DNA from: an uncultured Actinomycetes bacterium
GTDB taxonomy: Bacteria > Actinomycetota > Thermoleophilia > UBA2241
NCBI GenBank assembly: GCA_963725665.1
Contig: CAVRZA010000006.1
Coordinates: 1 to 64,000 of the forward strand
Length of the DNA: 64,000 nt
Reading direction: 5' to 3'
Part shown: in pieces, positions 36,683-64,000 of the stretch
Position numbering within the stretch: the first letter of the stretch is position 1
How the letters are laid out: each line of letters opens with the position of its first letter
The notes under the pieces: model-generated
Told to the model about the DNA's origin: nothing
Database searches by the model: none
The model's input: the letters and a program-made list of their open reading frames with translations, nothing else
Translations under genes and position numbers: made by a program

Positions 36683-36850
36683 GGTCGGCCCTCCCGCGCA
36701 CCGGCTGCTCTCGCCGTTGACCTCCTATATCATGCGGAAGCTGTTTCGTCGGCTCGCCAGGCTCATCTCGCGCGGGCAACCTGCGGCCTCAACGGGTCGA
36801 GGCCCCGTGCCCAGACGGAGCAACTCGCAAGAGCGAAGGAGTGATGGGGT

Positions 36851-42297: not shown

Positions 42298-42392
42298 AGC
42301 CGTCCCCCCGATTAGAGTCAGGTGAGCGGCCGTCCGGGCCGCCTGGCGTACGTTACCACGCGGTCACGATCCCGCGACAGCGGACCAGACTG

Positions 42393-43714: not shown

Positions 43715-43820
43715 GTCGACTATCGTCCTTTCTTCCGCTAGCCGAAGTCCCTGTGCGTCGGTGCGCCGGGACGCGTTTCAGGCGCGTCCCGGCGCACCAG
43801 GATCTTCGCGAGCATCGACC

Positions 43821-45802: not shown

Positions 45803-45806
45803 GCCC

Positions 45807-47227: not shown

Positions 47228-47317
47228 AAGTGACCACCGTCCTCGTCCCCCAGGCTCTTCTCGGAGCCGTTGGGCTGGAGAACGCCCTGGGCTTGCACGG
47301 TCCGGTTCACGTCACTC

Positions 47318-48739
47318 TCAGGCGTAGCTCATCGGTGCAAGCTTGCCGTTCTCGGGGATAGTGACGTTGAACGGCGCCGCCGCCGCGTGCGACGTGTCCA
47401 CGAGCAGCAGGTCGAACGGGTACTTCGTGCCCTTGGTCCACATGCCGCCCACGAGCACCGTGCGGCAGACGTTCGGGACCGGGTTCAGATCCCCTCCCGA
47501 CCACGTGACCTTGCCCGCGATGGTGTCCATGTCGGTCGCCTTGATGGCGTCCACGACGACTTGCTTGTCGTCGACGTTGGTGGCGCGCTTGAGGGCGTCG
47601 ACGACGACCTCGAAGACGGCGTAGTGCAGCAGTGGCTGTGCCCACTCCTTGCCGTTCGAGGCGGTCCAGGCGTCGGCCAGCTGCTGGCAGGTCTGACCGG
47701 AGAGCGACGACTTGAAGGGGTGCCAGGGCGACCACCAGCACTCGGTGGTGAGCCCGTAGCCGATGGGGCCGATCGCTTCCATCTCGGCCGGGAAGAGCAG
47801 GGCCTTGCCGACGGTGGCCGCAACCGGTTTGAACCTCTGCTGGTAGGACTGCTTCCAGAAGTTGACGAAGTCCGGCGGGATGAAGACGCCGCTCAGAATC
47901 TCACAGCCGGCCGCCTTGAACTTGGTGATCTGCGGCGTGTAGTCCTGCGTGTTGGGCAGGAAGCGGCCGCCGTCGACGAACGTATACCCCGCCGCCTTGA
48001 GCATCGGAGGCTGCCCCGTCTTGGGGTCGGCCCAGCCCTTGCCGTCGGCGTCGTTGGGCCACATCTCGCCGACTCGCTTGTTCGTCGGGAGCTGGTCCCA
48101 CATGCCGGTGAACACCGCCGTCACGTCTTCGAGGCCCCAGAAGAAGTGATAGGTCCACTTGAAGGGCACCGGGTTGGCCGGATCCTTCTGACGCCCGAAA
48201 AAGTATGGCTGCCATGGACAGTCGTTGGAGACGCAGGGAACGCCGAACGATTCGGCCGTGGAGGACACGGGGTTCACCGTGTCCGGCGTCGAAGCGACCA
48301 TCATGATGTCGACGCCGTCGTTGGTGATCAGGTCCCCGGCGACCGTCCCAGCACGCGTGGTGTCCGACTGGGAGTCCTTCACGATGATCTCGATCGGGTG
48401 AGTCTTGCCATCGCCGCAAGCGACACCGCCCTTCACGGCGGCCTTCCACTGTTCCACGATGAACGTGTCAAGCTGACCGAATGTGGCCAAGGGGCCCGTC
48501 AGCGGCGTCACGAAGCCGACCTTGATGGCGCGGCCCGTGGCGCTGGCGCTCGCCCCACCGCCACCGCCGCCGCTGCTGCCGCAGGCGGAGAGGGCGCCGC
48601 TCAGTCCGCCCAATGCGCCCACCGTGAGGCCGGTCGCGCCGGCGACCTTGAGAAAGTCGCGCCGGCTGATCGGCTTGCGGGTCAGCGGAGTCTCCTCCGA
48701 GCCCGAAGCCCCTGTGGACCTGTCATGGTCCTCTGCCAT
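47318..48739 (-). CDS. Liv-type ABC substrate-binding lipoprotein with Tat signal
   Basis: SRRDFLK twin-arginine motif, LSAC lipobox, IKVGFVTPLTGPLA. Confidence 0.9.
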   Translation of the reverse strand: MAEDHDRSTGASGSEETPLTRKPISRRDFLKVAGATGLTVGALGGLSGALSACGSSGGGGGGASASATGRAIKVGFVTPLTGPLATFGQLDTFIVEQWKAAVKGGVACGDGKTHPIEIIVKDSQSDTTRAGTVAGDLITNDGVDIMMVASTPDTVNPVSSTAESFGVPCVSNDCPWQPYFFGRQKDPANPVPFKWTYHFFWGLEDVTAVFTGMWDQLPTNKRVGEMWPNDADGKGWADPKTGQPPMLKAAGYTFVDGGRFLPNTQDYTPQITKFKAAGCEILSGVFIPPDFVNFWKQSYQQRFKPVAATVGKALLFPAEMEAIGPIGYGLTTECWWSPWHPFKSSLSGQTCQQLADAWTASNGKEWAQPLLHYAVFEVVVDALKRATNVDDKQVVVDAIKATDMDTIAGKVTWSGGDLNPVPNVCRTVLVGGMWTKGTKYPFDLLLVDTSHAAAAPFNVTIPENGKLAPMSYA

Positions 48740-49033
48740 GCCTCCTCCTTCCCCTGGTCCCGCGGCCCCTCGGCTCTTCAACGAGCCGATGGCTGCCGCG
48801 AGTGACCCCCGCTGGTTCCGATTTCTACCTGGGCGGACGCCGCACCTGGCCTCCACCGCTTCTGGTCCTGACGTATCCGCACGGACGAAGCGGATGACTT
48901 GCCCGCCATACGGACGCCAGCACCCGCGATACGGGCATGATACCGTCGGCCCTGGTCCAGTCAAGCACCCCCTTTGGTCATTTCGGCCCCCTGCGAACAA
49001 GGGACTGCAGCCCTCGTCGAGGAAGCCGGACCC

Positions 49034-49867
49034 TCACGTTTGCCCCACCAACTGTGGCGATAGGCGCAGCCGCTCGACCACCTCGGCCACGGTGGCCGGC
49101 TCGCGTCCGACGGCACGCGCCACCCCGACGAGCTGCTCGACGAGCTGGGCGTTCGAGTCCGCCGGCACGCCAGGCTCGAGAAGCAGCGTGTCCTCCATAC
49201 CGGTGCGCGCGTTGCCGCCCATCGCGAGCCCAATGGTGGTCATCGGCCGATTGGCCTTGGCCACGCCGATGACCTGCCAGCTCGTGCCCGGCGGCAACTC
49301 GCGCACCAGGTAGGCCAGCAGGGCCGGGTCACCGGTCATGCCGCCGCGCACACCCATCACGAACGAGATCTGCAGCGGCTCTGCGAGGAGCCCCTTCTTC
49401 AACAGCTCGAGGGCCACCACGATGTGGCCGGTGTCGTAGACCTCGAGCTCCGGCTTGACCCCGAGCTCGAGCATGCGCTCGGCCAGCTGCATCATCTGTA
49501 CGGGAGGATTGCGGAACTCGCCCTGCCCGAAGGTCATCGTGCACGGGTTCAGGGTCGCCATGGCCGGCCGCACCTCGACGATCTTCATGCGATCTTCGTA
49601 CTCGAACTCGAGCCCGACCCCCGTCGACAGCTGGATGATCGCCGGACAGGCCTCACGCACGAGATCCACCGTGCGCCTGGCGATATCGAGGTCGGCGGTC
49701 CGTCGACCCTGGTCGTCACGAAGGTGGATGTGGACGACCGCCGCTCCGGCCTCGAACGCCCCCCGCGCGCTCTCGGCGACCTCGGCCGGCGACCCCGGCA
49801 GCGCGGGGTTGTCGGCCTTGGTCGCCATGGGGCCCGTGAGCGCGGCCGTGATGATCGGGTTCGGCAT
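49034..49867 (-). CDS. BKACE (beta-keto acid cleavage, DUF849) enzyme; candidate triacetate acetoacetate-lyase
   Basis: IITAALTG, HIHLRD, QLSTG, KPELEVYD, ARTGMED. Confidence 0.9.
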   Translation of the reverse strand: MPNPIITAALTGPMATKADNPALPGSPAEVAESARGAFEAGAAVVHIHLRDDQGRRTADLDIARRTVDLVREACPAIIQLSTGVGLEFEYEDRMKIVEVRPAMATLNPCTMTFGQGEFRNPPVQMMQLAERMLELGVKPELEVYDTGHIVVALELLKKGLLAEPLQISFVMGVRGGMTGDPALLAYLVRELPPGTSWQVIGVAKANRPMTTIGLAMGGNARTGMEDTLLLEPGVPADSNAQLVEQLVGVARAVGREPATVAEVVERLRLSPQLVGQT

Positions 49868-49879
49868 GCCGCCCCCTTC

Positions 49880-50236
49880 TCAGACGTCCCGGGGCTCGGG
49901 ATAGGGGATCGCCACCAGCATCGACGCCGGCGAGTTCGTGCGGTTCTCGATGGCCCGCGACTCGTTGGGTGCCAGGTAGCACGAATCCCACTTCTTCAAC
50001 GTCGTCTCACCCTCGGCGGTGATGACGACGACCTCACCTTCGAGCACGAAGTAGACCTTCTCCACCGGCGTCGCATCCTCGAAGGCTCCGCCTTTGGGCA
50101 AGAAGTGCGAGAGGCCCATCCAGAACGTGCGCGTCTTGCTGACGTCGAAGCCCTGTAGGCGCAGGCCGTAGCATTCGTGGTGCTTGGGCGCCTCGTAGGG
50201 CGGCGCCTCGTCGTAGCGCGTGACCTCCATCGTCAC
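49880..50236 (-). CDS. Cupin domain protein
   Basis: EKVYFVLEGE, WDSCYLAPNESR. Confidence 0.85.
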   Translation of the reverse strand: MTMEVTRYDEAPPYEAPKHHECYGLRLQGFDVSKTRTFWMGLSHFLPKGGAFEDATPVEKVYFVLEGEVVVITAEGETTLKKWDSCYLAPNESRAIENRTNSPASMLVAIPYPEPRDV

Positions 50237-51045
50237 TCCTTCCCCTTCGGGATGCGGAACTCGCCGCTCGGATCGACCATCGCCACGACGCGCACGATGG
50301 AGCCGTCGCCCTTCTCCCAGCGGATCGGGAAGGCGGCGAGAGTGACGCGCTTGCCGGTGACCTTGTCGATGTCGCTGCCGCAGACGTTCTCGAAGCCGAC
50401 CATGCCGTTGCCCAGGATGAGGCGGTGGCAGGGTTCCCAGTCCGGGAAGTCCTGCTCGATCGCGTGCCCCTTACGCTCCTCGTACTCCTTCACGACCTTG
50501 GGCAGCAGCGGGCCGGGGCCGTGCCTGCCGATGGCCGTCGCCAGGGGATGGTCGAGCGCCTGCTGGTCGACGCCGACACCCTTGGCGCCCACCTCGAGGA
50601 GGTACTCGATGGCGCTCGGCACCAGGCCGGGCGAGTAGGCAAAGTACTTCTGGGAGTCGCTGTAGTACTTGTGCCAGCCGCAGTTGATGATCACGAGGTC
50701 GCCGGACCGGATCTGCGGCGTGGCCATCTCCAGGTCCTCGCGCGTGATGGGCGCCCAGTCCTCCTCCTTGGGAATGGAGAGCACGACGCCCGGCCCGAAG
50801 TACTTGTAGAGCGGCACCTCGTCCGTGAACTCGAGGCCTTCGACGACGTGCGCCGGGGCATCGGCGTGCGTCGTGCAGTGCATCACGGTGGTGATCTTCT
50901 GCGATAGCACGCCCGATTTGGCGTGGTAGTGAACGCGCTCGATCTTGACGTCCTCGAAGTAGGGCCAGAGCGGCGCGTTGTGCCCGAAGGGAGCGCTCAG
51001 GTCGTAGAACTCGAGACCGGTCTTCGGATCCTTTGGTTGCTCCAT
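50233..51045 (-). CDS. Metal-dependent cyclase family (KynB-like); candidate dihydrophloroglucinol cyclohydrolase
   Basis: HCTTHADAPAH, GVDQQALDHP, GFEN, GDGSIVR. Confidence 0.88.
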   Translation of the reverse strand: MEQPKDPKTGLEFYDLSAPFGHNAPLWPYFEDVKIERVHYHAKSGVLSQKITTVMHCTTHADAPAHVVEGLEFTDEVPLYKYFGPGVVLSIPKEEDWAPITREDLEMATPQIRSGDLVIINCGWHKYYSDSQKYFAYSPGLVPSAIEYLLEVGAKGVGVDQQALDHPLATAIGRHGPGPLLPKVVKEYEERKGHAIEQDFPDWEPCHRLILGNGMVGFENVCGSDIDKVTGKRVTLAAFPIRWEKGDGSIVRVVAMVDPSGEFRIPKGKE

Positions 51046-52017
51046 CTAGCTCTCCTCTTCGTCCATGTCCTTGGTCAGGCGGACCAGGTGTTCCATGAGG
51101 CGCCGGCGTGAGGCCTGCGCCTCCTCCGGGCTCCAGTCGCGGAAGCCGTGGCCGCTCTTGAAGCCCAGCTCGCCCTTCTCCACCTTCTCACGCAGCGCTG
51201 CAGAGGGCTCGGTCGAGGCGTCGAGGTAGGGGAAGATGTACTGGTGGATGCTGAGCACCAAGTCGAGGCCGCTCATCTCGGCGGTCTCGATCGGGCCGAG
51301 GACCGGCAGCCGCAACCCGAAGCCGTAGCGGATGCTCTCGTCGACCGTGGCGGGATCGGCGATGCCGCGGTCGACGATGGCGAATGCCTCGCGCCAGAGG
51401 GCGTGCTGCAGGCGGTTGGCGACGAACCCAGGCACGTCCTTCTTGACGTCGATGGGGTGCTTGCCGACCGAGCGCAGCAGGGCGATGGTCTTCTCGATCA
51501 CGTGTGGTGCGGTGTCCGGGGTGCGCACGACCTCGACCAGCGGCACCAGGTAGGGGGGGTTCCAGAAGTGCGTGCCGATGACGCGCTCCTTGTGGCGCGC
51601 CTGACTGCCGACCTCTCCTATGCTCATGACGGAGGTGTTGGTGGCCAGGATCGTCTGGGGCGGGCAGAGCTCGTCGAGATCGGCGAAGACCTGCTGCTTG
51701 AGCTGCAGGTCTTCGAAGACGCACTCCACGACAAAGCCCGCCCCACGCGCCGCTTCCGCGAGATCCGACGTCGTGGTCACGCGGGCGACGGCCACACCGA
51801 TCTCGTCGGGCGGGTACACCTCGTGCTCGGCCAAGAAGGTCAGGTTCGATCGGATCGCCTCCGGCGCCCGCTCGAGCGCCTCTTCGAAGACGTCCTGGAG
51901 CATCACCTGGTGTCCGCGCGCCGCGAACACCTGCGCGATGCCGACGCCCATCATGCCGGCGCCGATGACCGCTACACGCTCCGGCTCGCCTGATCTCATC
52001 CTTCGCTCCCCGGGCAC
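51046..52017 (-). CDS. 3-hydroxyacyl-CoA dehydrogenase family; candidate 3-hydroxy-5-oxohexanoate dehydrogenase
   Basis: GAGMMG, ATNTS, THFWNPP, PGFVANRLQ. Confidence 0.9.
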   Translation of the reverse strand: MPGERRMRSGEPERVAVIGAGMMGVGIAQVFAARGHQVMLQDVFEEALERAPEAIRSNLTFLAEHEVYPPDEIGVAVARVTTTSDLAEAARGAGFVVECVFEDLQLKQQVFADLDELCPPQTILATNTSVMSIGEVGSQARHKERVIGTHFWNPPYLVPLVEVVRTPDTAPHVIEKTIALLRSVGKHPIDVKKDVPGFVANRLQHALWREAFAIVDRGIADPATVDESIRYGFGLRLPVLGPIETAEMSGLDLVLSIHQYIFPYLDASTEPSAALREKVEKGELGFKSGHGFRDWSPEEAQASRRRLMEHLVRLTKDMDEEES

Positions 52018-52030
52018 TGGCGTTGGCGGC

Positions 52031-52828
52031 TCAGCCGGCCGTGGCGCCGCCGTCGACCATGAGGATGTCGCCGGTGACCATGTCGGACGCCGCCGAGGCG
52101 AGGTAGACGACCGCCCCGATCAAGTCGTTCAGCTCGGCGGCGCGTTTCAAGGGGATGCGCTGCATGAAGATCTCGAAGAGCTTGGGGTCGTCGAGGATCG
52201 GCTGCGTGAGAGGCGTCCAGAAGACGCAGGGCGCTATGCTGTTCACGTTGATCTTGTACTTCGCCCACTCCGTCGCCAGTTGCTTGGTCAACAGGTGCAC
52301 GGCGCCCTTGGCCGGCACGTAGGCGGCGTAGCCGCCCGGGTGACCCAGCTCCCCGCGCAAGGACCCGACGGTGATGATCTTGCCGCCGCCCTGCTTGATC
52401 ATCTGCCGTCCCGCCGCCTGGCAGCAGAGGAAGGTCCCCCTGACCAGGGAGTCCATCACCTTCTGCCACTCGTCGATGGGGAACTCCTCGGCGGGGTAGC
52501 GGTTGGTGACCCCCGAGCCGGTGACGAGGATGTCGACGTGGCCGAGCTCCTCGATCGTCTGGGCGACCATCGCCGCGACGCTGGCCTCGTCGGTCGTGTC
52601 GCACGGGATCGCCCGCACCTCGTGCTCCGACAGGGCGCGCAACTCGTCGGCGGCCCGATCGAGGTTCTCCGCGTTGCGGCTCGTAAGCACGACGTCGGCG
52701 CCGAAGGCGGCCAGTCCTCTCGCCGCCGCGCCGCCGAAGGCGCCCGAGCCCCCGGTGACGATGGCCACCTTGCCGGTCAGGTCGAACATGTTGCGGATCT
52801 GCTCAAGACTCCAGGTCTCTTGCGCCAT
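52031..52828 (-). CDS. SDR oxidoreductase; candidate phloroglucinol reductase
   Basis: TGGSGAFG, YVPAK, NVNSIAP, DGG. Confidence 0.88.
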   Translation of the reverse strand: MAQETWSLEQIRNMFDLTGKVAIVTGGSGAFGGAAARGLAAFGADVVLTSRNAENLDRAADELRALSEHEVRAIPCDTTDEASVAAMVAQTIEELGHVDILVTGSGVTNRYPAEEFPIDEWQKVMDSLVRGTFLCCQAAGRQMIKQGGGKIITVGSLRGELGHPGGYAAYVPAKGAVHLLTKQLATEWAKYKINVNSIAPCVFWTPLTQPILDDPKLFEIFMQRIPLKRAAELNDLIGAVVYLASAASDMVTGDILMVDGGATAG

Positions 52829-52911
52829 CTGCTCCCCTTCCGAACCGTGCCTTTGCTCTCTCGACCGCCGACGGCGGTCGCGTTCTGTCGCCGATCAGGC
52901 GGCGAAGCCCG

Positions 52912-53688
52912 TCACCGTTCGCCGCCGCTCAGTACCGACTGGATCTCGTCACGCGTGCGCAGCAGCGCCGCGGCGACCTCGCGTTCTCTCGCCTCGAAGC
53001 GCGCCGCCGGCAAGACCACTCCGACGGCCGCCAGTGATCCCAGGGCGTCGTGGACCACCGTCGCGACCGCCGCGATCCCCACGGTGTGCTCCTCGCGGTC
53101 GTAGGCCACGCCCGTGGCACGGACTAGATCGAGCTCCTCGTGCAGCACGCGGCGGTCAGTGATCGTCGCCGGAGTGTGCTTCGGCAGGCCGGACGGGACG
53201 AGGGCGTCGACCTCGTCGTCGCCCATGGCTGCAAGCAGGGCCTTGCCGTTCGCCGTGCAGTAGACGGGAAAGCGACCGCCGATCTCAGACACGATACGCA
53301 GCACGTTCTGCGAGGTGTACTGGTCGATGAAGAGCACATCCTCGCCGTCGAGCACCCCGAGGTCGACCGTCTCATGCACCTCGTGCGAGAGCCGCTCCAG
53401 GTAGGGCGCCGCCTCGTGACGGAGCTCTCTCCGGCTGGCTACGGCGATGTGGATGAGAGCCGGGCCGATGCGCAGCTTGCCCGACGGCGACGCGAGCACG
53501 AAGCCCTCGTGACTCAGGGCCCGCACGATGCGGTGCGCGGTCGAGCGCGGCAGCTCGACGCGCGCCGCGAGCTCGGCAAGGGAGAGACCGCGCGGCGAGG
53601 CCGCGAGCTGGCGCAGCACCTCCGACGCGCGGGCGATGACCTGCACACCCTCGCGGCGCCGGCCCGCGGCGTTGGGCGAAGCCGTCAT
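52912..53688 (-). CDS. IclR family transcriptional regulator
   Basis: VQVIARA, LPRSTAHRI, YCTANGKALLA, DREEH. Confidence 0.92.
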   Translation of the reverse strand: MTASPNAAGRRREGVQVIARASEVLRQLAASPRGLSLAELAARVELPRSTAHRIVRALSHEGFVLASPSGKLRIGPALIHIAVASRRELRHEAAPYLERLSHEVHETVDLGVLDGEDVLFIDQYTSQNVLRIVSEIGGRFPVYCTANGKALLAAMGDDEVDALVPSGLPKHTPATITDRRVLHEELDLVRATGVAYDREEHTVGIAAVATVVHDALGSLAAVGVVLPAARFEAREREVAAALLRTRDEIQSVLSGGER

Positions 53689-53748
53689 CCGCAGTTGCGC
53701 CACGTCCCCTGACTCCCTCGTGGATCCCTCGCCGGACATCCCCGCGAA

Positions 53749-53763
53749 TACTGCATTGCGGAA
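53749..53763. promoter_or_regulatory. Candidate IclR operator
   Basis: Pseudo-palindrome TACTGCA-T-TGCGGAA upstream of the IclR gene. Confidence 0.35.
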
Positions 53764-53883
53764 CTGCCCATCCGTGATGCAGGACATCATTGCAGCACAC
53801 GAGGCGCGAATCAAGTACGAGTCCGACGCTCGTCGTCGAGCCTGAACGCCGCTCGCCGAGGCACGCGCGGTGCGTGCCGAACG

Positions 53884-54648
53884 CTAGATCCGCGCCGTCA
53901 GACCACCGTCGACGAAGAGGATCTGGCCGGTGACGAAGGCGGACGCCGGCGACGCCAGAAAGAGCACCGGCCCGACGACGTCGCCGGCGTCCGCCCACCG
54001 CCCCATCGGGATGCTCGCGCGCAAGGTGGCGGCGAACTTCTCGTCGGCGAGCACGGCACGCGTGAGGTCGGTCTCGACGAACGTCGGCGCGACGGCGTTG
54101 ACGCGCACACCGAACTCGGCCCACTGCGCCGCCAGCGAGCGAGTCAGCGAATCGACCGCGCCCTTGCTGGCCGAGTACTCGGTCTGTCCGAACGCGGCCC
54201 CGAAACGGCCGCGCACCGATGACAGATTGACGATCGCGCCGGAGCGCTGGCGGATCATCTGCTCCCCGAAGACGCGGCAGCAGACGAAGGTGCCGGTCGC
54301 GTTCACGTCGAGGATGCGCCGCCACTCTTCGACGGTCACGTGCTCGGCGCGCTTGCGCACAGTGACGCCGGCGGCGTTGACGAGGATATCGACACGCGCG
54401 AACGCGGCGAGACGACCTGCGCGCAGGCCGCCCGCACCGAGGCCTCGTCCGTGATCTCGATGGCCAAGCCCAGCGCCTGGACGCCGAGCTGGCGCGCCGC
54501 GTCGGCGGCCTCGAGCGGCGCGATCGCCGTCGAGGTCGGCCACGGCGACGTCGGCGCCGTGGCCGGCTAGGCCCGCGGCGATCGCCCGGCCAAGGCCGCC
54601 CGCTCCGACGACGACGGCTCGCCGGCCGGCAATGTCGAACACGCTCAT
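53884..54648 (-). CDS. SDR oxidoreductase (compensating frameshifts ~54420-54530)
   Basis: GAGGLG, NAAG, YSASK, VNAVAP, DGG. Confidence 0.88.
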   Translation of the reverse strand: MSVFDIAGRRAVVVGAGGLGRAIAAGLAGHGADVAVADLDGDRAARGRRRGAPARRPGAGLGHRDHGRGLGAGGLRAGRLAAFARVDILVNAAGVTVRKRAEHVTVEEWRRILDVNATGTFVCCRVFGEQMIRQRSGAIVNLSSVRGRFGAAFGQTEYSASKGAVDSLTRSLAAQWAEFGVRVNAVAPTFVETDLTRAVLADEKFAATLRASIPMGRWADAGDVVGPVLFLASPASAFVTGQILFVDGGLTARI

Positions 54649-54684
54649 GCGCCCTCCTCAGCACCCGCCCGCCGTGACTCGTCC

Positions 54685-56880
54685 CTAGTCGCCGTCGCCG
54701 GAGAGACCGGTGGCGTGCCGCCGGCGGTAGTCTGCGTACCAGGCCATGCGGTCGAGCGCGAACAGAGCGGACCGCGGCGACGGAAGCACGATCGGATCGT
54801 AGGGGCCGTCGCACGGGAAGAGCGCCTGGCGGATCGGCGAGTCGTAGACGTTGATGATGGGCTTGCCGGTGGCCTCCATGAGTCCCGCGACGTAGGTGAG
54901 GAACCCGCTCTCCCAGGTGCTGAAGCCGTCGTACTCGCCGCTCGCGCTTGCGGGCCGCACGTCGTCGCCGGTGTTGGGCACGCCGAGCACCGAGAGCACC
55001 GCTATCGCGTCGAAGGCGTCGTTCTCAGCCACCGCGGAGAGCACCCGGCTCCCCACGTCACCGCCGGCCGACGCTACCATGTCGAGCGGGTTGTGGCGGC
55101 TCCAGAACGGCGGCAGCAGCCCGTCGAGCTCCTCGACGAGCGCCGGCGGCAGATCGGGCAAGACCAGGCCGCGGCGCGCGGCCTCGTCGGCCGCGAGCAC
55201 GCCGGCGCCGCCGCCGTTGGTCACGATCGCCACGCGGCGGCCGCGCGGCAGCGGCAGATGCGCCAGCGCGAGAGCCAGGTCCAGCGCCTCGTCGGTGGCC
55301 GTACAGGTGACCACGCCGGCCTGCCGGGCCGCCGCCTCGTAGACGGCCGCGGAGCCCGCCATGGCGCCGGTGTGCGAGGCGGCGGCCCTGCCGCCGACCT
55401 CGGTGAGACCGCCACGCACCGCTACGACCGGTTTGACGGCCGCGGTCCGCCTCGTGACATCCAGGAAGCGGCGCCCGTCGTCGATGCCTTCCACGTACAT
55501 CAGAACGCACTCGGTGCGCTCGTCGGTGCGCAGGTAGTCGAGCACGTCGATGACGCTCACCTGAGCCTCGTTGCCGACGCTGAGGAACTTGTCGATGCCG
55601 ATGGCGCGCCGCTCGGACGCCTTGACGATCTGCACGCCCAGGTTACCCGACTGCGAGACCAGGCTCAGCGGGCCCTGCTGCGGGTGCAGCGTGATGAAGC
55701 CGGTGCCGTGCAGCCGCGTCTCGTTCGAGATCACGCCCATGCAGTTGGGGCCGATCACCGTGATCCCCAGCTCGGCAGCCGCATCCGCCATCTCCCGCTC
55801 CGCCTGCCGGCCCTCATCGCCGGTCTCCGAGAACCCGGCGGCCACGGCCACCACGGCCGGCACGCCGCGTCGCGCGCACTGCTCGAGGACGGACGTGACC
55901 CGCTCGCCGCTGACGGCGAGAAGTGCCAGATCGGGCGCTTCGGGCAGCTCCTCGACGCTCGTGTACACCGGCAGGCCGAAGTACGTGCCGCCGCGCGGGT
56001 TCACCGCGTAGACCGGACCCTCGAAGCCACCGTCGAGGATGTTCTTCAGCGCCGAGCCGCCCCACTTCACGACGTCGTCGGAGGCGCCCACGACGGCGAC
56101 CGACCGGGGGGCGCACACGGCCCGCAGGTCGGGCTGGAAGCCCCGGCCCGGCGCGGGCGCGGTAGCGGCCGACGCGCCGCCCGAGAGGACCACCAGCGCG
56201 TCGGCCGCCACCGGATGATCACCGGCGATGATGAGCGGGTTGAGGTCGATCTCGGTGACCTGTGGATAGTCCGCGGCGATACGAGCGACCGCCAGCACGA
56301 CGCCGGCCAGCTTCGCGCGGTCGACGGCCGGCTGGCCGCGAAACGCTCCCAGGAGGCGCTTCGAGCGGATTAGCTCGAAGAGCTCGTCGACATCGCGCTC
56401 GTCGAGAGGGGGGATCGCGAGCGCGATGTCGCCGAGCACCTCAGTCATGACGCCGCCCAGACCGAAGGCCACCACAGGACCGAAGGCGGCGTCGCGCTTC
56501 ATGCCTACCATGAGCTCGCGGCCGCCGGTCACCATCTCCTCGACGAGCACCGCATCGAGCGCGTCGCCGGCCCGCTCCGCGAGATCGCCGTAGGCGACGA
56601 CCACCTCTTCCGGCCCGCGACGGTCGAGAAGCACCAGCCCCGCCTCGGTCTTGTGGTGGATGCCCTCGCCCACGGCCTTGAGCGCCACCGCGCCGTCGAC
56701 CGACGCGGCAAGTGCGACCGCCTCGGCCTCCGAGCGCGCAAGGCCGCCCTCAGGCACCGGGACACCATAGGCGGCCAGCAGGCGTTTCGCCTCGTGCTCA
56801 TCAAGCGCGGAGCGCCCCGCCACGAGCGCCGCCTCAACGATGGCGGATGCTTCCGCGGGCTGCCGTCTCGCTGTCTGCAT
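54685..56880 (-). CDS. ADP-forming acyl/acetate-CoA ligase (ATP-grasp beta domain fused N-terminal to alpha)
   Basis: HKTEAGLV, IDLNPL, VVGAS, IGPNCMG, SQSG, AASHTG, NPLD. Confidence 0.9.
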   Translation of the reverse strand: MQTARRQPAEASAIVEAALVAGRSALDEHEAKRLLAAYGVPVPEGGLARSEAEAVALAASVDGAVALKAVGEGIHHKTEAGLVLLDRRGPEEVVVAYGDLAERAGDALDAVLVEEMVTGGRELMVGMKRDAAFGPVVAFGLGGVMTEVLGDIALAIPPLDERDVDELFELIRSKRLLGAFRGQPAVDRAKLAGVVLAVARIAADYPQVTEIDLNPLIIAGDHPVAADALVVLSGGASAATAPAPGRGFQPDLRAVCAPRSVAVVGASDDVVKWGGSALKNILDGGFEGPVYAVNPRGGTYFGLPVYTSVEELPEAPDLALLAVSGERVTSVLEQCARRGVPAVVAVAAGFSETGDEGRQAEREMADAAAELGITVIGPNCMGVISNETRLHGTGFITLHPQQGPLSLVSQSGNLGVQIVKASERRAIGIDKFLSVGNEAQVSVIDVLDYLRTDERTECVLMYVEGIDDGRRFLDVTRRTAAVKPVVAVRGGLTEVGGRAAASHTGAMAGSAAVYEAAARQAGVVTCTATDEALDLALALAHLPLPRGRRVAIVTNGGGAGVLAADEAARRGLVLPDLPPALVEELDGLLPPFWSRHNPLDMVASAGGDVGSRVLSAVAENDAFDAIAVLSVLGVPNTGDDVRPASASGEYDGFSTWESGFLTYVAGLMEATGKPIINVYDSPIRQALFPCDGPYDPIVLPSPRSALFALDRMAWYADYRRRHATGLSGDGD

Positions 56881-56960
56881 GGTCGCTCCCTCGCGGTGCC
56901 TGGATCGCTCCCTCGCGGCTTGCGTATCGACCCAACGCGGTCCCCTTGGGCCAATTGACT

Positions 56961-56975
56961 ATATGGTAACCAAAT
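56961..56975. promoter_or_regulatory. Candidate FadR/GntR operator
   Basis: ATATGGT-A-ACCAAAT in the AT-rich divergent region, next to TTGACT. Confidence 0.55.
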
Positions 56976-57118
56976 TGCTATTTTACGGTCAACACGCACT
57001 CGTGCGTGCGCGGGAGAGAGCCGGTTGAGCAGGTGAGCGCAGTGCAGGCAGGCGAGGGCCCGGCGGACAAAGCAGCGTCGTGCGAGCAGGTGAAAGCGGT
57101 GCCGACAGGGGAGCGCAG

Positions 57119-57853
57119 GTGACGGACGAGGACATCCACGGCACGCCGCCGGCGCCCGACACCGCCAGCGAGAGCGCGGCGCGGTACGTGCGCTCGCTCA
57201 TCTTCTGGGGCGAGCTCGGTCCCGGCGACAAGCTGCCCCCGGCGACAGAGTTGGCGACCCGTCTGGGCATCTCGCGCGTGACGCTGCGCCTGGCTCTCAA
57301 GTCGCTGCAGAGCACGGGCTACATCGTCACCACGCGCGGCGCTCATGGGGGGTCGCGGGTGAGCGACGCGGCCGCCCTACAGCGGTGCTGGAGCCAGTGG
57401 ATGGCGGTCCACAACGGCGAGCTCGACGACATCTTCGAGTTCCGCACCACGATCGAGAGCCGGCTGGCCGCGCTGGCGGCGCAGCGGCGTACTGCCAAGG
57501 AGATGACCACTGTCGCGCGCGCGCTCGCGCGCGAGCGCGGGGAGCACAGGCGCTCGTCGCTGTTCCGAGCCGACGCCGACATCCACCGCAGCATCGCCAG
57601 GGCGGCCCACAGCCCTCGTCTCGCCGCAGCCATGAACGCCGTGCGCGCCCAGCTCTTCCTGCCGGTTGACCAGGAGCTCTTCGAGGAGAGCGAGGCCGGC
57701 GTCTACGCCTCGCACGCGGCCATCGTGGCCGCCATCCGCGACCGCGACCCAGAGCGCGCCGCTCGGGCGGCCAGAGAGCACACCGAGAGGGTGCGCGGGC
57801 TCATCGACCGGGCGCTGGAGGCCGCACAGGTCCGCGAGCGAGCGCTGATGTGA
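57119..57853 (+). CDS. FadR/GntR family regulator
   Basis: PGDKLPPATELATRLGISRVTLR HTH, FCD-type C-terminal domain. Confidence 0.9.
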   Translation: MTDEDIHGTPPAPDTASESAARYVRSLIFWGELGPGDKLPPATELATRLGISRVTLRLALKSLQSTGYIVTTRGAHGGSRVSDAAALQRCWSQWMAVHNGELDDIFEFRTTIESRLAALAAQRRTAKEMTTVARALARERGEHRRSSLFRADADIHRSIARAAHSPRLAAAMNAVRAQLFLPVDQELFEESEAGVYASHAAIVAAIRDRDPERAARAAREHTERVRGLIDRALEAAQVRERALM

Positions 57854-57912
57854 GGTCGTCCATGCCACAAGGAGGCGGATGGTCGTCACGGCGCTCAACG
57901 GACGCAGGGCTC

Positions 57913-59232
57913 GTGAACGCCACTCCGACGCACATCAACATCACCATCAGCTTCTATCGCGGTTGGCTGGTCACGTTTGCGGCCGCCACGATGGGCCTGT
58001 TCCTCGGCATCCTGTACGTCTGGAGCGTGGTCAAGGCCGGCATCCCCGCATCCTGGGGCTGGAGCAACGCCGACATGGCGCTACCGTATTCGGTGATGTG
58101 CGTCCTGTTCGCGGCCACCATGATCCCGGCGGGCCGGCTGCAGGACCACTACGGACCGCGCATCGCCATCCTGCTGGGCGGGTTTCTGGTCGGCCTGGGA
58201 TGCATCGTGTGCGGGGCGGGAGGCTCGTCGCTGGCCGCCTACGTGGTCGGCTTCGGGGTCCTGCACGGCAGCGGGGTGGGCTTCGGGTACTCGGCCATGA
58301 CGCCCGCGTCGGTGAAGTGGTTCGCACCCCGGCGCACCGGCCTGATCGCGGGCATCGTGGTTGCCGGGTTCGGTCTAGCGCCGGTCGTCCTCGCACCACT
58401 GGTCACCTGGCTTCTGACGGCCTTTCAAACAACGACCGCGTCGGGGGCGGTCGAGAAGGGGGTCTCCGCCACCATGATCACCCTGGGCATCGTCGCCTGG
58501 CTGGTGGTCGGCGGCCTGACCCTGCTGGTCCGCAACCCTCCCGAAGGGCACCTGGTGCAACCACCCCAGGAGTTGCGGCAGGCCTTCGAGCACTCGGCCG
58601 GCAGTGAGTTCACCTGGCGCGCCATGCTGCGCACGACGCAGTTCTGGCTGCTGTTCGTCATGTTCTTCTGCGGGGCCGCCGCTGGGCTCATGTTCATCAG
58701 CGTGGCCTCCGACCTGGGCAAGCGGGCGCTTGGATCGTGGGCGTTCCTGGCCGTGATGGTCCTTGCGTTCGGCAACAGCAGCGGGCGCATCCTGGCGGGT
58801 GTAGTCTCGGACAGGATCGGACGCCAATGGACCCTGTTCGTCGAGTTCGTCTGCCAGGGCCTGGTGGTCGCCGTCCTCTACCGGCTCAGCGGCGGCGGCG
58901 TGTGGCCGGTCATCCTGACCGTCGTGTTCCTGCTGGGGTTCAACTACGGCGCCAACCTGGCGGTGTTCCCGGCCGCCTGCAAGGACTACTTCGGCCTGCG
59001 GAGCTTCGGGCTCAACTACGGCTGGCTGTTCGCCGCTTTCGGCCTGGCGGGGCTGACCATGCCTTGGGTCAACGGCCTGATCAGGGACGCGACCGGATCG
59101 TCCGACTTGTCGTACGCGATCATCATCGGGCTGATGGTGGTGGCAGCCGTCCTGGCTCAGGTCAGCCGGCTCCTGGGACCGCCGAACGCGAGACCGAAAT
59201 CCGCCGTGTCCGTGGGCGAAGGAGAAGAGTAG
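57913..59232 (+). CDS. MFS transporter, OFA (oxalate/formate antiporter-like) family
   Basis: GILYVWSV, GRLQDHYGPR, VKWF...RTGLIAG, SDRIGR, DYFG...GLNYG. Confidence 0.88.
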   Translation: MNATPTHINITISFYRGWLVTFAAATMGLFLGILYVWSVVKAGIPASWGWSNADMALPYSVMCVLFAATMIPAGRLQDHYGPRIAILLGGFLVGLGCIVCGAGGSSLAAYVVGFGVLHGSGVGFGYSAMTPASVKWFAPRRTGLIAGIVVAGFGLAPVVLAPLVTWLLTAFQTTTASGAVEKGVSATMITLGIVAWLVVGGLTLLVRNPPEGHLVQPPQELRQAFEHSAGSEFTWRAMLRTTQFWLLFVMFFCGAAAGLMFISVASDLGKRALGSWAFLAVMVLAFGNSSGRILAGVVSDRIGRQWTLFVEFVCQGLVVAVLYRLSGGGVWPVILTVVFLLGFNYGANLAVFPAACKDYFGLRSFGLNYGWLFAAFGLAGLTMPWVNGLIRDATGSSDLSYAIIIGLMVVAAVLAQVSRLLGPPNARPKSAVSVGEGEE

Positions 59233-60045
59233 ATGGCCATTGTCACGATCTCGAGAGGCACCTACACGGGCGGCATCGCGGTGGCCGAGGGGCTTGCGGT
59301 AGCACTGGGGCACCCTTGCGTGAGCCGCGAAGTCGTCATAGACGCCGCGCGGGACTCCGGCGTCCCCGAAGCCGAGCTGCAGTCCACGCTCGAGGAGCCG
59401 CCGCACTTCTGGGAGAAGACACCGGGAAAGACCGCGGCGTCCCTGAACCTCGTGAGAGCGGCACTGCTCAAGCGGGCCCGTGACGGTGACCTCGTCTACC
59501 ACGGCTACGCCGGGCACCTGCTGCTGAGCGGCATCGCACACGTGTTGCGCGTTCGGGTCATCGCCGATCAAGAGTCTCGCATCAGAGCGGCGATGGAGGA
59601 CAAGGGCATGGACTATCGAGCGGCGGCCGATTTCGTCAAGAAGCTCGACAACCAGCTCATCAAGTGGACCAGGTTCCTCTACGGCGTCGAGTGGCAGGAC
59701 CCCTCGGTCTACGATGTAGTCCTGAACCTGGAGCACATGAGCGTCGACAGCGCCGTGCAGACGATCGCGCAGATCACCCGGCTGGACGACTTCAGACCGA
59801 CGGCGGACTCCCGCAAGGCCTTCGAGGACCTTCTCCTGAGCAGCAACGTCTGGGCGGCGCTGACCGCGGACAAGCGGACCCGCTCGGCGAACGTGCGCGT
59901 CGCGGCCGACGACGGCGTCGTCTTCATCACCGGACTGGCCGACAACGAGCGCACGCTGACGGCCGTGCAGGAGGTGGCTGCGGCCATACACAGCGTCAGA
60001 GAGGTGCAGAGCGAGGTCGGCATCGGCCGTACCTGGCAGTGGTGA
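59233..60045 (+). CDS. Cytidylate kinase-like protein with C-terminal BON-like domain
   Basis: IVTISRGTYTGG, LRVRVIA, DPSVYDVVLN, VAADDGVVFITG. Confidence 0.75.
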   Translation: MAIVTISRGTYTGGIAVAEGLAVALGHPCVSREVVIDAARDSGVPEAELQSTLEEPPHFWEKTPGKTAASLNLVRAALLKRARDGDLVYHGYAGHLLLSGIAHVLRVRVIADQESRIRAAMEDKGMDYRAAADFVKKLDNQLIKWTRFLYGVEWQDPSVYDVVLNLEHMSVDSAVQTIAQITRLDDFRPTADSRKAFEDLLLSSNVWAALTADKRTRSANVRVAADDGVVFITGLADNERTLTAVQEVAAAIHSVREVQSEVGIGRTWQW

Positions 60046-60104
60046 CGAACGGGACGGGGCGGGCCCGCCGCGCACAGGCGGCGGGCCCGCCCCGTCCCGT
60101 TCGT
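60045..60104. terminator. 27-bp perfect hairpin between convergent operons
   Basis: ACGAACGGGACGGGGCGGGCCCGCCGC-N6-GCGGCGGGCCCGCCCCGTCCCGTTCGT. Confidence 0.75.
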
Positions 60105-60115
60105 GACCGCTGGTC

Positions 60116-60953
60116 TTACGAGGCCGTCAGGACGATCTCACCGAGGTCGACGTCGGTCTGCGTCTTGACGTCGGACCGCTGCGGCACGTAGCCGTCGTGG
60201 CTGACGGTGATGCGGTAGGCCGCGTTCCTGGCGAGGCCCTCGAACTCGAACTGGCCGAAGACATCCGACGTCGTCTCCGCACGCACGCCCTCGCCCTCGA
60301 GCACGACCTTGATGCCCGCAGCGCAGGCGTCGGCGGCGTCGTCGAGGACGACCTCGCCGGCCACGAAGCGCTTGGGGATGCCGTGGTAGCGCACCAGCGG
60401 CGAGCACCCGTACTCCGGGTGCAGCGCCTCGGTCTTCAGGGCCGCCACGCGCTGGGAGATCTCCGACTGCGGATCGTCGAGGTCGCCGAACACCATGGCG
60501 CCGGTCGGGCACGACTCGACGCACCGCGGCTGCTTCTCGCCGGCGTCGAGCCGGTGGGCGCAGAGGGTGCACTTCTGCGGGATCTCGAGCTCCGCGTTCC
60601 AGAACACGACCCGGTAGGGGCAGGCCTGCACGATCTGCCGCTGGCCCTTGGCCTTGTCCGGGTCGATGACGACGATGCCGTCCGGCCGCCGGTAGACGGC
60701 GCCGTCCGTAGCGACGTCCATGCACGGCGCGTCCTCGCAGTGCAGGCAGGGGATGGCGACGTAGTCCACCTTGGGACGCGGGTAGGCGCCGCGCTCGATC
60801 TCCTTGACCTGCATCCAGAACTGCCCGTGCAGCGGCTGCGCGGCCGAGTAGCCCGGGTAGTCGTTGTTGTCGTGCTCGTCACGGCACGCCAGGAAGCAGT
60901 TGTGGCAGCCGTTGCACCTGGTCGACATCGATCAGCATGCTCAGTCGCGTCAT
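60116..60953 (-). CDS. bthL: Pyrogallol transhydroxylase-type small subunit (4Fe-4S plus C-terminal beta-sandwich; frameshift near start)
   Basis: CNGCHNCFLACRDEH, ERGAYPR, CLHCEDAPC, DGIVVIDPDKAKG, CPY, KCTLCAH, FGQFEFEGL, VDLGEI, matching the recalled Pelobacter BthL layout. Confidence 0.8.
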
Positions 60954-60956
60954 CGA

Positions 60957-63504
60957 TCAGCCCTCCCACTTCTCGATGTCGATCAGGCACGAGTTGGGCG
61001 TCATGCCGGGGGCGTTCTTGCTGAGCATGCGCGAAGGCGTGAGCAGGTTGACGCAGCCGCCCTTGTCGATGGAGTCGGCCTTGCCCGGGATCAGCGGATC
61101 GTACTTGGCGGACGAGGCGTAGCTGTGCATCACGCCGGGCCGCACGCGCTCGGTGACGACGGCGCAGCAGAGCACCGACGCCCGGTCGTTGTAGAGCCGG
61201 ACGATGTCGCCGTTGCGGATGCCCCGCGCCTGCGCGTCGTCGGGATGGATGCGCGCCGGCCACCAGGCGTAGCCGTCCTTCTTGATGCGGTGGACGGGGA
61301 TGTCGTCCAGCCAGTCGGTGTGCTTGTCGTAGTGGGAGTGGAAGGAGAAGCGCGGATGCGGCGAGATGAGCTGCAGCGGATACTTCTCGAAGAGCTCGGT
61401 CGAGTGATGGCCCTCCCAGCTCGGGATGTAGTGCGGGATAGACCGGCCGCTCCTCGTCGTCCGGGAAGTGCGCCTTGAGGCTCTCGCGAGACGAACTCGA
61501 TCTTGCCGCTGTAGGTGCCGAGCTCGTGGGCCTTGTCGGTGCCGCGCTTCGGGTTGCTCGGGTCCGGGGTGTCGCACGTCGCGCCCCTCGGCGAACCAGC
61601 GCATCGCCGGGGTGGGCTTGTAGTTCTCCGGGCAGCGTTGATGATGTGGTAGCCCTTCCTGTCGAACTCCTCCCAGTCGACGAACTTGGGCAGGTCGGAG
61701 ATCTCGAAGAACGAGCCTGACCCAGTCGATCTCGGTCTTGCCGCCGTCGGTGAAGTCCTCGTCGAGACCGAGCCGCTCGGAGAGGTCGGCGAAGATCTCG
61801 TAGTCCGACTTCGACTCCCACAGCGGCTCGATGCACTTCTTCTCGCGCACGATGACGCGGAAGTTGTAGCCGCGTGCTGCGCGTTCGTGGTGTACCCGCC
61901 GCAGGCGCCCCACTCGCCGATGTCGTCGCGCTCGAGGTTGGTGCAGGCCGGCAGGATGACGTCGGCGATCCGCGTCTCGCCGTCGACACCAGCAGTCCTG
62001 GTTGACGACGAATTCGAGCTTGGGGCTCTGGTACATGCGCACCCACTTGCGTGGTGTCCGTCATGGTGCCCATGAACGAGCCGCCGTAGCGGTAGAACAG
62101 CTTCACCTCCGAGCAGCCCGGCATGGGATAGATGAAGTGCGTGAACTGCTGCTCGAGCGACTGGCCGCAGAAGCCGTCGCCGTACCAGCTGACCGGCGGT
62201 TCGAGGATCGCGTCCGGGCACGGTCAGCCGATAGAGGCGCTGCTTGGTCGGGTTGTCCGGGAGGAGGTCGGCGACCAGCTTGGACAGCGCGATGCGGCCC
62301 GTCGGGATCGGCATAGGCCGGGAACCAGATGTCGTTGTCGCGCGGCGCGCCCATGGCGGTGCCCCAGATGCTGACGCCCGGGCTTGCCCAGCCCCTGCAT
62401 CGCCTGCAGCAGGACCATCAGGCGCGCCCATTCGGTGCCGTAGGCGGTGCGGCAGGCGCCGCCTTCGCCGCCGCGGGCGCCACGCCGAGAGCATGGTGCG
62501 CTTGCGCGGCCCACTCGCGCGCCAGCGCGCCGATGATGCGGGCCTGCACGCCGCACTCCTCGGCCGCCCACTCCGGGGTCTTGGGCACGCCGTCGCTCTC
62601 GCCCAGCACGTAGGCGCTTGAACTCGTCGAAGCCGACGGTGCGCTCGGCGACGTAGTCCTTGTCGTAGGTGTCCTCGGTGATCCACACATGGGCGATCGC
62701 CATGCGCCAGCGCCGCGTCGGTGCCCGGGCGCGGGGCGATCCATTGGCCGTCCGTCGCGGGCGCCGTGTAGTTGTGGAAGGGGTCGATGAAGACCATCTT
62801 GACGCCCTTCTCCTTCAGCCACTGGCGCCAGATGCGCCGACTCGTGGCCGGTGTAGATGCCGCGGGTCGTGTCCGGGTCGTTCGACCAGAAGACGATCAT
62901 CTCGGCGTGCTTGAGCGCGTCCTCGAGCATGTCGTAGGGCTCGGGCATGCCGAGCCGCCAGTAGAAGCCGTAGGTGTGGGTCGCGCCCCAGTGCCAGCCC
63001 TCCCAGCTGTCGGGGTTGTCGAGCACCGGCGTGTAGCTCGAGCAGGTTCATGAAGCGCGAGAACGCGCCCATCTTGTAGCCGACGATGCCCCAGTTGTGG
63101 TGCGAGGAGGTGAGCGCCGCTGATCGCCGACCCGCCGTAGGTGTTCTGCACGCGCTTGATCTCGCCCGCGACGATGTCGAGCGCCTCGTCCCAGGAGATG
63201 CGCTCGTAGGGCGACTTGCCGCGGTTCTGCGGGTTGCGCTCGCCGTTCGGGTCGAAGTCGACGCGCTTCAGCGGGTACTTGATGCGGTCGTCGGAATAGA
63301 GGCGCCTGCGCTCGGCGAGCACGAACGGCGCGAGGTTGAACTTCTTCGGCGGCGAGTACGTCTTGCCGTCGGCCTCGATCGTCCACGGCCTGAAGTCGGT
63401 CTCGTCGGCGACGAGCGGACGGATGCGCACGACCTTTCCGTCCTCGACGTAGACGCTGATCGGGCCCGCAGTTGGTGCAGTTGGTGAAGACCGCTCTCAG
63501 TCAT
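60957..63504 (-). CDS. athL: Mo-bisPGD oxidoreductase, pyrogallol hydroxytransferase large-subunit type (many frameshifts)
   Basis: FDPNGERNPQNRG, YERISWDEA, SSHHNWG, NPDSWEGWHWG, LEDALKHAEMIVFW, GGACRTAYGTEWAR, HPRFSFH, GGCVNLLT. Confidence 0.85.
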
Positions 63505-63731
63505 GCTCTGACCTCCCACCGGCCATCACGGACGCGCGTAGGCTCGACCGAGCGTCGGGCTTCGACTGGTCGTGGCCTGCTGCTGGTCGATTTCGCCGCA
63601 GTCCCCTTGCGGAGGCGCAATATTGTGATATCGTGCAGTAGCAGTGTGGATATCGTAGGTAGTCTCAGCGCAGTAATCAAGTCTTGACCGAGAAGACCGC
63701 CTCGTCCCGGCTTTGGACAGAGGACGTGTCC

Positions 63732-64000
63732 ATGGCAAGGGGGGCCATGGCAGCGACCAAGAACCTCGCGGCGCCCAGAGCGAGACGACCTGATCGAGCA
63801 GACGTCCGACTGCCCGATCGAGCGCGATCCGCTCCTCGTGCGCGCGCTCGCGCGCGGCCTCTCTATCCTCTGTCTGTTCGACGTCGACCACCGCGAGTGG
63901 ACCATCGACCAGATGGCCGAGCAGACGGGGCTCCTGCGCATGACCGCGTACCGCATGGTCCGCACGCTGGAGTCGACGGGATTCCTGGTCCGCGATCCCG
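63732..64000 (+). CDS. IclR family regulator (3' partial, frameshifted)
   Basis: ARGLSILCLFD...MAEQTGLLRMTAYRMVRTLESTGFLVRDP HTH; divergent from athL. Confidence 0.75.
   Translation, partial: MARGAMAATKNLAAPRARRPDRADVRLPDRARSAPRARARARPLYPLSVRRRPPRVDHRPDGRADGAPAHDRVPHGPHAGVDGIPGPRS

Follow-up and report, generated by a model that had tools for sequence, protein, structure and literature searches.

The 64,000-nt stretch of contig CAVRZA010000006.1 analysed here (the window) carries homologues of both subunits of pyrogallol-phloroglucinol transhydroxylase, AthL and BthL, and in the same neighbourhood a compact operon with the enzyme families and residue signatures of phloroglucinol ring cleavage. 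The explanation that we consider likely is that two known units for trihydroxybenzene breakdown, both independent of oxygen, are combined in one actinobacterial locus; the likeness to known systems is seen in homology, gene order and discriminating residues, from which the enzyme activities are predicted. The owner of the locus would be a high-GC soil actinobacterium, probably of the class Thermoleophilia. Thermoleophilia supply the named close matches to a HisD-family gene (76-79% identity) and to the short-chain dehydrogenase/reductase (SDR) at 52031-52828 (64-71% identity), and the three nearest BthL loci among the matches listed are Actinomycetes or Thermoleophilia, two of the three being Thermoleophilia. 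G+C is 64-72% across the whole window and spurious open reading frames (ORFs) are abundant; real genes were chosen by third-position G+C together with Pfam matches, with 82 ORFs scanned (20 + 62). An initial annotation of this DNA had named and placed the gene families, and Pfam finds all of them where it had put them. For comparison, one genome per species was scanned with an eight-sequence BthL alignment, which gave at least 611 pattern matches, 592 of them confirmed; the 79 transhydroxylase loci that were kept are denoted by L-numbers. Because only 33 of the 79 span the full 20 kb, all counts of neighbouring genes are lower bounds.

The ring-cleavage operon consists of five adjacent minus-strand genes (52828-49034, with gaps of 13, 0, -4 and 12 nt) that encode an SDR, a 3-hydroxyacyl-CoA dehydrogenase (3HCDH)-like protein, a cyclase, a small cupin and a BKACE enzyme (Table 1). 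According to Zhou et al. 2023 (PMC10470551; here and below, the available portions of the article and its supplement), phloroglucinol reductase (PGR) is an SDR, dihydrophloroglucinol cyclohydrolase (DPGC) a Mn-dependent cyclase-family enzyme, (S)-3-hydroxy-5-oxohexanoate dehydrogenase (TfD) a 3HCDH-like protein and triacetate acetoacetate-lyase (TAL) a BKACE enzyme, and the four families together serve as the published search criterion for the pathway. The window homologues of PGR, DPGC, TfD and TAL are adjacent genes, all without frame breaks. In the same source, DPGC is told apart by Trp20 and Tyr22 in place of Ile32 and Leu34 of isatin hydrolase, plus a conserved metal site; the window cyclase has W27-P-Y29 and the metal motif H56..T59-H60..D62..P64..H66, matching the DPGC signature. 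The register was set by a passage in PMC10470551 and a peptide of the Clostridium scatologenes enzyme (CsDPGC) that ends at residue 19, which makes this a motif mapping and not a full CsDPGC alignment. TfD is distinguished by the absence of Lys56 and Asn221 of HBD with Ser117, His138 and Asn188 kept (PMC10470551). Aligned with Clostridium butyricum HBD (4kug_A), the window protein has Lys56 in a gap and Arg for Asn221 beside an insertion, and it retains Ser117, His138 and Asn188, which is the TfD pattern; by eye, 16 of the 20 residues of an available CsTfD peptide around the catalytic His are the same. In TAL, Glu14 of Kce is replaced by Trp, and CsTAL has Trp16 in that column (PMC10470551). 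The window BKACE has Met14 at this column of the amino-group-binding Glu and thus shows the TAL signature in part; the nine other module-linked BKACEs that were aligned have Ile, Leu, Val or Gly there. The SDR at 52031-52828 is identical to relative P0393 at 255 of 265 residues, with 0 frame breaks, and falls into a clade with the module SDRs of Mycobacterium riyadhense, L064 and L068 (support 97/94). Since the four families lie in one tight operon, the cyclase, the 3HCDH-like protein and, in part, the BKACE carry the discriminating residues, and the order SDR-(gap)-cyclase-cupin-BKACE-IclR recurs on a plasmid of M. riyadhense, the pathway assignment made by the initial annotation is well supported by sequence, with full residue signatures for DPGC and TfD and a partial one for TAL; each enzyme activity is predicted.

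What weighs against this assignment is that all pathway enzymes score below the NCBIfam equivalog cut-offs, that the column of the CsTAL Trp is occupied by Met in the BKACE, and that the cyclase is only ~38% identical to the L041 type, which the available CsDPGC peptides resemble. As for PGR, the SDR has full-length Pfam matches and NCBIfam scores below the cut-offs, and a second, paralogous SDR candidate lies in the window. The operon might instead act on another cyclic 1,3-dione or a beta-keto acid, as in the BKACE pathways of the carnitine or lysine type, where 3HCDH and BKACE enzymes are also paired. The lack of any enzyme at a curated NCBIfam cut-off agrees with this, as does gluconate 5-dehydrogenase being the closest solved relative of the SDR among the PDB matches listed (none of the 60 listed is named phloroglucinol reductase). 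We nevertheless regard such a substrate as very improbable: the L-carnitine dehydrogenase model gives 138 bits where 414 are required, the Kce model 271 bits where 382 are required, which, with Met14 and hence no amino-group-binding Glu, places the BKACE outside Kce, the cyclase bears the DPGC-specific W-P-Y, and the four families occur together as in the published search for the pathway (PMC10470551).

Phloroglucinol ring cleavage by this operon is also in line with the closest known arrangements. The C. scatologenes cluster, as far as it is described in the available parts of PMC10470551, has the same four families, the W-P-Y motif and metal site in DPGC, a TfD without the CoA contacts that keeps the catalytic triad, a BKACE without the Kce Glu, a cupin of ~113-118 aa beside the reductase, and a regulator and transporter. 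It differs in that its genes are dispersed (tags 1082, 1083, 1088, 1091) where the window has five adjacent ones, its DPGC has 312 aa as against the ~270-aa type of the window, and TAL has Trp16 where the window enzyme has Met. The window also lacks the thiolase, CoA-transferase, phosphotransacetylase and acetate kinase of C. scatologenes, having an ADP-forming acyl-CoA synthetase (ACD) instead, and, unlike that cluster, has transhydroxylase genes nearby. M. riyadhense plasmid NZ_OY970457 has its genes in the order SDR-(3HCDH)-cyclase-cupin-BKACE, together with an IclR gene, as in the window, and the SDRs share one clade; this Mycobacterium-type module corresponds to the UniRef50_A5U375 DPGC group in the available supplement of PMC10470551. 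Identity to the window is 62% for the cyclase, 57% for the BKACE and 46% for the cupin (tblastn) and 45% for IclR, and only 38% for the SDR and the 3HCDH protein. Unlike the window, the plasmid has no transhydroxylase, ACD or ABC transporter annotated in the 25-kb stretch that was covered. Cyclase-family genes of another kind are found in L008 (2125-2661), L010 (7140-8846) and L031 (5554-7171), as tandem pairs in L010 and L031. One copy of these tandem cyclases reads SYPG and the other EWPS, compared with LWPY in DPGC, which suggests subfamilies that would use another substrate.

The second unit is the transhydroxylase. BthL is intact, matches PDB 4v4c_B at 6.7e-61 (residues 4-265 to 12-272) and has 0 frame breaks relative to L002 and L003. 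The C-terminal piece of AthL matches 4v4c_A at 2.6e-64, and after frame correction AthL aligns over the full length of L003 (839 of 839 residues). L003 belongs to the same clade, and its own match to 4v4c_A has E 7.5e-282 and spans residues 6-838. In-frame pieces of the window AthL contain SSHH, NPDSWEGWHWG and FPAYAD, corresponding to SSHH, NPDSWEGW and FPGYAE in the solved chain. We take these motifs to be the surroundings of His144, Asp174-Ser175 (with Ser175 as Mo ligand) and Tyr404. By homology, AthL and BthL are pyrogallol-phloroglucinol transhydroxylase homologues. Like the Pelobacter acidigallici enzyme (PDB 4v4c), they have the large-then-small gene order, the AthL-specific domain 1, the Fe-S motifs and C-terminal beta-barrel-like domain of BthL and the three motif regions, and no twin-arginine signal was found on the transhydroxylase. 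They differ from it in the large subunit, which has 20 insertions as written, and in the host, an actinobacterium as opposed to a Desulfobacterota fermenter. Relatives of the window also differ from P. acidigallici in that their transhydroxylase is encoded in two divergent copies, separated by an IclR gene. In L002 this IclR gene lies between the two transhydroxylase operons at the place of the window's gene at 63688-64000, which suggests that the two-divergent-operon layout continues past position 64000 of the contig. Two divergent AthL-BthL operons are present in the Thermoleophilia/Actinomycetes relatives L002, L039 and L079 (~2000-10800 in each). A search of plasmids with BthL returned only homologues of at most 40% identity.

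The sequence of AthL is spread over all three minus-strand frames (stop-to-stop ORFs), and no uninterrupted reading frame spans it in the sequence as given; the initial annotation had overlooked this, and translation would require 19-20 frame corrections. A stop-to-stop ORF of at least 750 aa ends beside BthL in 68 of the 79 loci; in the other 11 it is missing or the end of a contig cuts it. When intact AthL proteins were compared with the window by plain tblastn, the alignments were long, of low identity and in wrong frames. A purpose-written frameshift-aware protein-DNA aligner was used instead, which called 18/18 simulated deletions and 18/18 simulated insertions correctly. With this aligner, AthL is identical to L003 at 678/839 residues (20 frame corrections), to L002 at 675/846 (20) and to L012 at 635/837 (19), each time with 0 in-frame stops. 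All 20 corrections are insertions, 18 of 1 nt and two of 2 nt; deletions are absent, and every residue of the reference is retained across the breaks. The corrected AthL is 80-81% identical to L002 and L003, which are 77% identical to each other (L002, L003 and L012 mutually 74-77%), and hence shows no excess divergence, as the relatives differ among themselves as much or more. The second PGR-like SDR, which groups with the module SDRs of L041 and L042 (support 92/89), has two compensating breaks inside an open ORF that leave residues 42-82 (~40) in the wrong frame, which the initial annotation had likewise overlooked. All 22 of the 22 mapped window breaks are thus insertions without loss of a residue. 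PGR, TfD, DPGC, cupin, TAL, ACD, the GntR regulator and BthL have 0 breaks.

The same pattern is found in other metagenome-assembled genomes (MAGs). AthL and BthL have 7 and 2 breaks in L039 and 7 and 1 in L079, L032 has 2 in AthL and L025 a single one in BthL. Each of these 20 breaks is an insertion, and none coincides in position with a break of the window; L002, L007, L012, L023 and L024 are free of breaks. Programmed or sequence-specific frameshifting was rejected, as the window, L039 and L079 have their breaks at different positions. The AthL break sites show no k-mer enrichment (GCGC at 8/20 sites, null 95th percentile 10), and the breaks are not linked to homopolymers (length 2.15 at sites and 2.28 gene-wide). 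Because the breaks are insertion-only, free of stops and excess substitution, and recur as a pattern in other MAG loci, the insertions in AthL and the second SDR most probably are consensus errors of the assembly and not decay; if so, the organism probably has a working transhydroxylase.

What speaks against assembly errors is how unevenly the breaks fall, with 20 in the 2.5 kb of AthL and none in eight nearby genes. Uniform sequencing error does not predict such clustering and gene-specific decay does. Similar clusters lie in and around the two transhydroxylase copies of L039 (3000-12000) and L079 (2000-10500), while breaks are sparse or absent in the rest of their 20 kb. AthL and the second SDR could accordingly be real pseudogenes, in an organism that has lost pyrogallol isomerisation and uses the operon for phloroglucinol from flavonoids or other sources. 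The concentration of breaks in AthL (20) and the second SDR (two) next to eight unbroken neighbours is what this would produce, and the many other broken genes of the window are as expected of a decaying genome. It is, all the same, improbable in view of 22 insertions and 0 deletions, the lack of stops and of excess amino-acid divergence, and the fact that four independent MAG loci likewise have insertions only, though at other positions. Decay of bacterial pseudogenes is generally deletion-biased and accompanied by substitutions, which counts further against it. Under the assembly-error explanation, a possible cause of the clustering is that reads were mixed from paralogous copies, or from other populations with this highly conserved gene. 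Outside AthL, a frame-tracking model that recovers 15 of the 20 known AthL breaks gives 19 more candidates, 15 of them of the +1 type, and Pfam domains of a P-type ATPase, a MIP channel and a sulfatase are split across window ORFs. In this window an open ORF is no proof of an intact gene and a broken one no proof of a pseudogene; censuses of pathway completeness based on assemblies of this kind need a check for frame breaks, or their counts will be wrong.

The linkage of AthL and BthL with the ring-cleavage genes, which the initial annotation had treated as one cluster, holds at the level of the neighbourhood and not of a shared operon: 7.3 kb, six genes and an opposite-strand operon lie between them. 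Counting homologues within 10 kb of the transhydroxylase (coverage of at least 50%, E of at most 1e-10), at least two of the four core ring-cleavage genes are present in 15/79 loci, at least three in 7/79 and all four in 3/79 (L026, L041 and L065). In these and other loci of uncultured Chloroflexota, Desulfobacterota and Bacillota, as in the window, AthL-BthL lies no more than 10 kb from homologues of PGR, DPGC, TfD and TAL along with a cupin; the ring-cleavage genes there usually abut the transhydroxylase in one direction, unlike the separated arrangement of the window. All 15 linked loci are from phyla other than Actinomycetota. As a point against the combined reading, 0 of the 12 actinobacterial transhydroxylase loci have two or more ring-cleavage homologues within 10 kb, which makes the linkage atypical for the lineage. 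The sole locus that is syntenic on the side of ACD and the GntR gene, among the matches listed, is L079, where ACD is followed by a 2-oxoacid:ferredoxin oxidoreductase and no module is present; the two units, joined in the window, are thus also found apart.

In the proposed pathway, the first unit, AthL-BthL, would be a cytoplasmic molybdenum transhydroxylase with its own divergent IclR regulator, converting pyrogallol into phloroglucinol, a reaction in which the transhydroxylase uses a tetrahydroxybenzene co-substrate. The second would be the operon IclR-SDR-TfD-DPGC-cupin-TAL, followed by the ABC transporter. The SDR would reduce phloroglucinol with NADPH to dihydrophloroglucinol, the Mn-dependent cyclase-family DPGC would open the ring to (S)-3-hydroxy-5-oxohexanoate, TfD would oxidise this product to triacetate, and the BKACE enzyme TAL would turn triacetate and acetyl-CoA into acetoacetate and acetoacetyl-CoA. 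Thiolase and acetoacetate activation would be encoded elsewhere, or activation would come from the neighbouring ACD; among the 82 scanned ORFs there is no thiolase or UbiD-type decarboxylase domain, in agreement with what the initial annotation had reported on thiolase and gallate decarboxylase.

That annotation had further proposed fermentation to acetate with substrate-level ATP, which we do not adopt, as the nearest ACD homologue, in L079, lies beside a 2-oxoacid:ferredoxin oxidoreductase, and facultative aerobes are among the bacteria with the pathway. If the route were strictly fermentative, with ACD converting acetyl-CoA into acetate and yielding ATP, the position of ACD between the two units would fit. 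Homologues of ACD (33% identical) follow AthL-BthL-cupin-SDR in L006 and L035, and the available text of PMC3971608 reasons in a like manner for Chloroflexi whose transhydroxylase operons are paired. We still consider it unlikely. The closest ACD among the loci listed (L079, 64% identical) is next to the 2-oxoacid:ferredoxin oxidoreductase and not to phloroglucinol genes, and ADP-forming ligases can also be activating, the NCBIfam models for 3-hydroxypropionate and 4-hydroxybutyrate ligases scoring nearly like the acetate model. The window also encodes an NDH-2 type dehydrogenase, and the cluster is reported from facultative aerobes in the available parts of PMC10470551.

The conserved cupin is the only fresh lead of the locus, and a cheap and testable one. 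Its homologues lie beside PGR or DPGC in 12/79 loci and in M. riyadhense, and in Desulfobacterota loci directly after AthL-BthL and before the reductase. In C. scatologenes, cupin CSCA_1081 adjoins CsPGR (CSCA_1082), and CSCA_1081 peptides appear in a proteomics table of the available supplement of PMC10470551; the word 'cupin' is absent from the main text of PMC10470551 in its available form. A literature search found no paper joining a cupin to the phloroglucinol cyclohydrolase pathway, and a protein-cluster atlas searched with the cupin returned generic cupin clusters only. Tentatively, this ~115-residue cupin could be an unrecognised fifth component of the phloroglucinol/pyrogallol pathway, although we put this at somewhat less than an even chance. 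The family keeps His19 and several Glu and lacks the classical cupin metal motif. The protein might therefore be a tautomerase or isomerase whose substrate is phloroglucinol or dihydrophloroglucinol, or else a helper that binds small molecules.

The initial annotation had presented the pathway as new to its lineage. This novelty is gone at the phylum level: the cluster is already known from Mycobacterium, and Streptomyces, 'Actinobacteria bacterium RBG' and 'Actinomycetia bacterium' stand in the available supplementary tables of PMC10470551. The string 'Thermoleophil' was not found in the supplements of PMC10470551, one file of which was covered in part, so that this is not conclusive, and a literature search judged by title found no related paper on phloroglucinol in Thermoleophilia. 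As far as the available text of each goes, 57 peat MAGs from 13 phyla express PGR and transhydroxylase genes (PMC12203004), and paired transhydroxylase operons accompanied by an ADP-forming acetyl-CoA synthetase have been known from Chloroflexi since 2013 (PMC3971608). The advance is incremental, since earlier publications cover the pathway, how widely it is distributed and that actinobacteria have it. If the proposed pathway holds, uncultured Thermoleophilia-like soil actinobacteria would feed tannin- or flavonoid-derived trihydroxybenzenes into acetyl-CoA without oxygenases, which would make them one more group relevant to polyphenol turnover in soils.

Table 1 Genes of the two units and of the region between and beside them
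Feature	Coordinates	Strand	Evidence or remark
Branched-chain-type ABC transporter: twin-arginine (TAT)-signal binding protein, two ATPases, two permeases	43824-49000	-	Pfam
Candidate TAL, BKACE family, 277 aa	49034-49867	-	BKACE 5.2e-89
Small cupin, 118 aa	49880-50236	-	Cupin_2
Candidate DPGC, 270 aa	50233-51045	-	Cyclase PF04199
Candidate TfD, 323 aa	51046-52017	-	3HCDH_N + 3HCDH
Candidate PGR, SDR, 265 aa, intact	52031-52828	-	Pfam adh_short_C2
IclR-family regulator of the ring-cleavage operon	52912-53814	-	Pfam
Second PGR-like SDR, two insertion breaks	53884-54648	-	+1 near 54510-54534, +2 near 54406-54412
ACD, fused ATP-grasp and CoA-ligase domains	54685-56880	-	ATP-grasp_5, CoA_binding_2, Succ_CoA_lig
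GntR/FCD regulator, divergent from ACD gene	57080-57853	+	Pfam
MFS transporter (monocarboxylate/OFA-like)	57850-59232	+	MFS_1; NCBIfam SfMCT
Cytidylate-kinase-like + BON domain protein	59233-60045	+	PF13189, PF04972
BthL-like small Fe-S subunit, intact	60116-60928	-	Fer4_11 + CarboxypepD_reg
AthL-like large (molybdopterin) subunit, interrupted	60957-63504	-	PF21423 AhtL-like domain 1, 46 bits (cut-off 27)
IclR-family regulator, N-terminal part, divergent from AthL-like gene, cut by window end	63688-64000	+	HTH_IclR 1.9e-11

The genes between the two units are in part shared with L079. ACD is identical to the L079 copy at 463/704 residues with 0 frame breaks, its best NCBIfam equivalog scoring 407 bits against a cut-off of 1200, and the GntR/FCD regulator is identical at 156/229 residues, with no frame breaks, to the L079 neighbour of BthL. 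The MFS transporter, called OFA-type in the initial annotation, passes the L-lactate MFS transporter model (348 bits, cut-off 320) and falls below the oxalate/formate subfamily cut-off (199 against 375). No homologue of the cytidylate-kinase-like/BON protein was found among the 79 transhydroxylase loci. The ABC transporter directly downstream of the ring-cleavage operon possibly serves substrate uptake; weak homologues of its binding protein lie near modules in L041 and L064.

In L079 (13586-20795) a 2-oxoacid:ferredoxin oxidoreductase, a weak match to a chalcone-isomerase N-domain (23.8 bits, cut-off 25) and an FAD oxidoreductase lie beside the transhydroxylase and ACD genes, which hints at a flavonoid-related neighbourhood. 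The matches of the HisD-family gene (42356-43777) and of the SDR at 52031-52828 appear to share four source assemblies, which suggests the same HisD-SDR neighbourhood in several related MAGs. Genes with +1 splits in 1-43000 comprise the P-type ATPase (three pieces), two sulfatases, the MIP channel, a PASTA kinase and the HisD-family dehydrogenase, example regions being 3589-7063, 19405-22027, 29056-30114, 36845-39206, 40736-42293 and 42356-43777. The upstream part also encodes two sulfatases, a radical-SAM/SPASM protein that may be a sulfatase maturase, and a PLP-dependent decarboxylase (17627-19045, 19405-22027, 34400-35752 and 36845-39206), all unrelated to the trihydroxybenzene locus.

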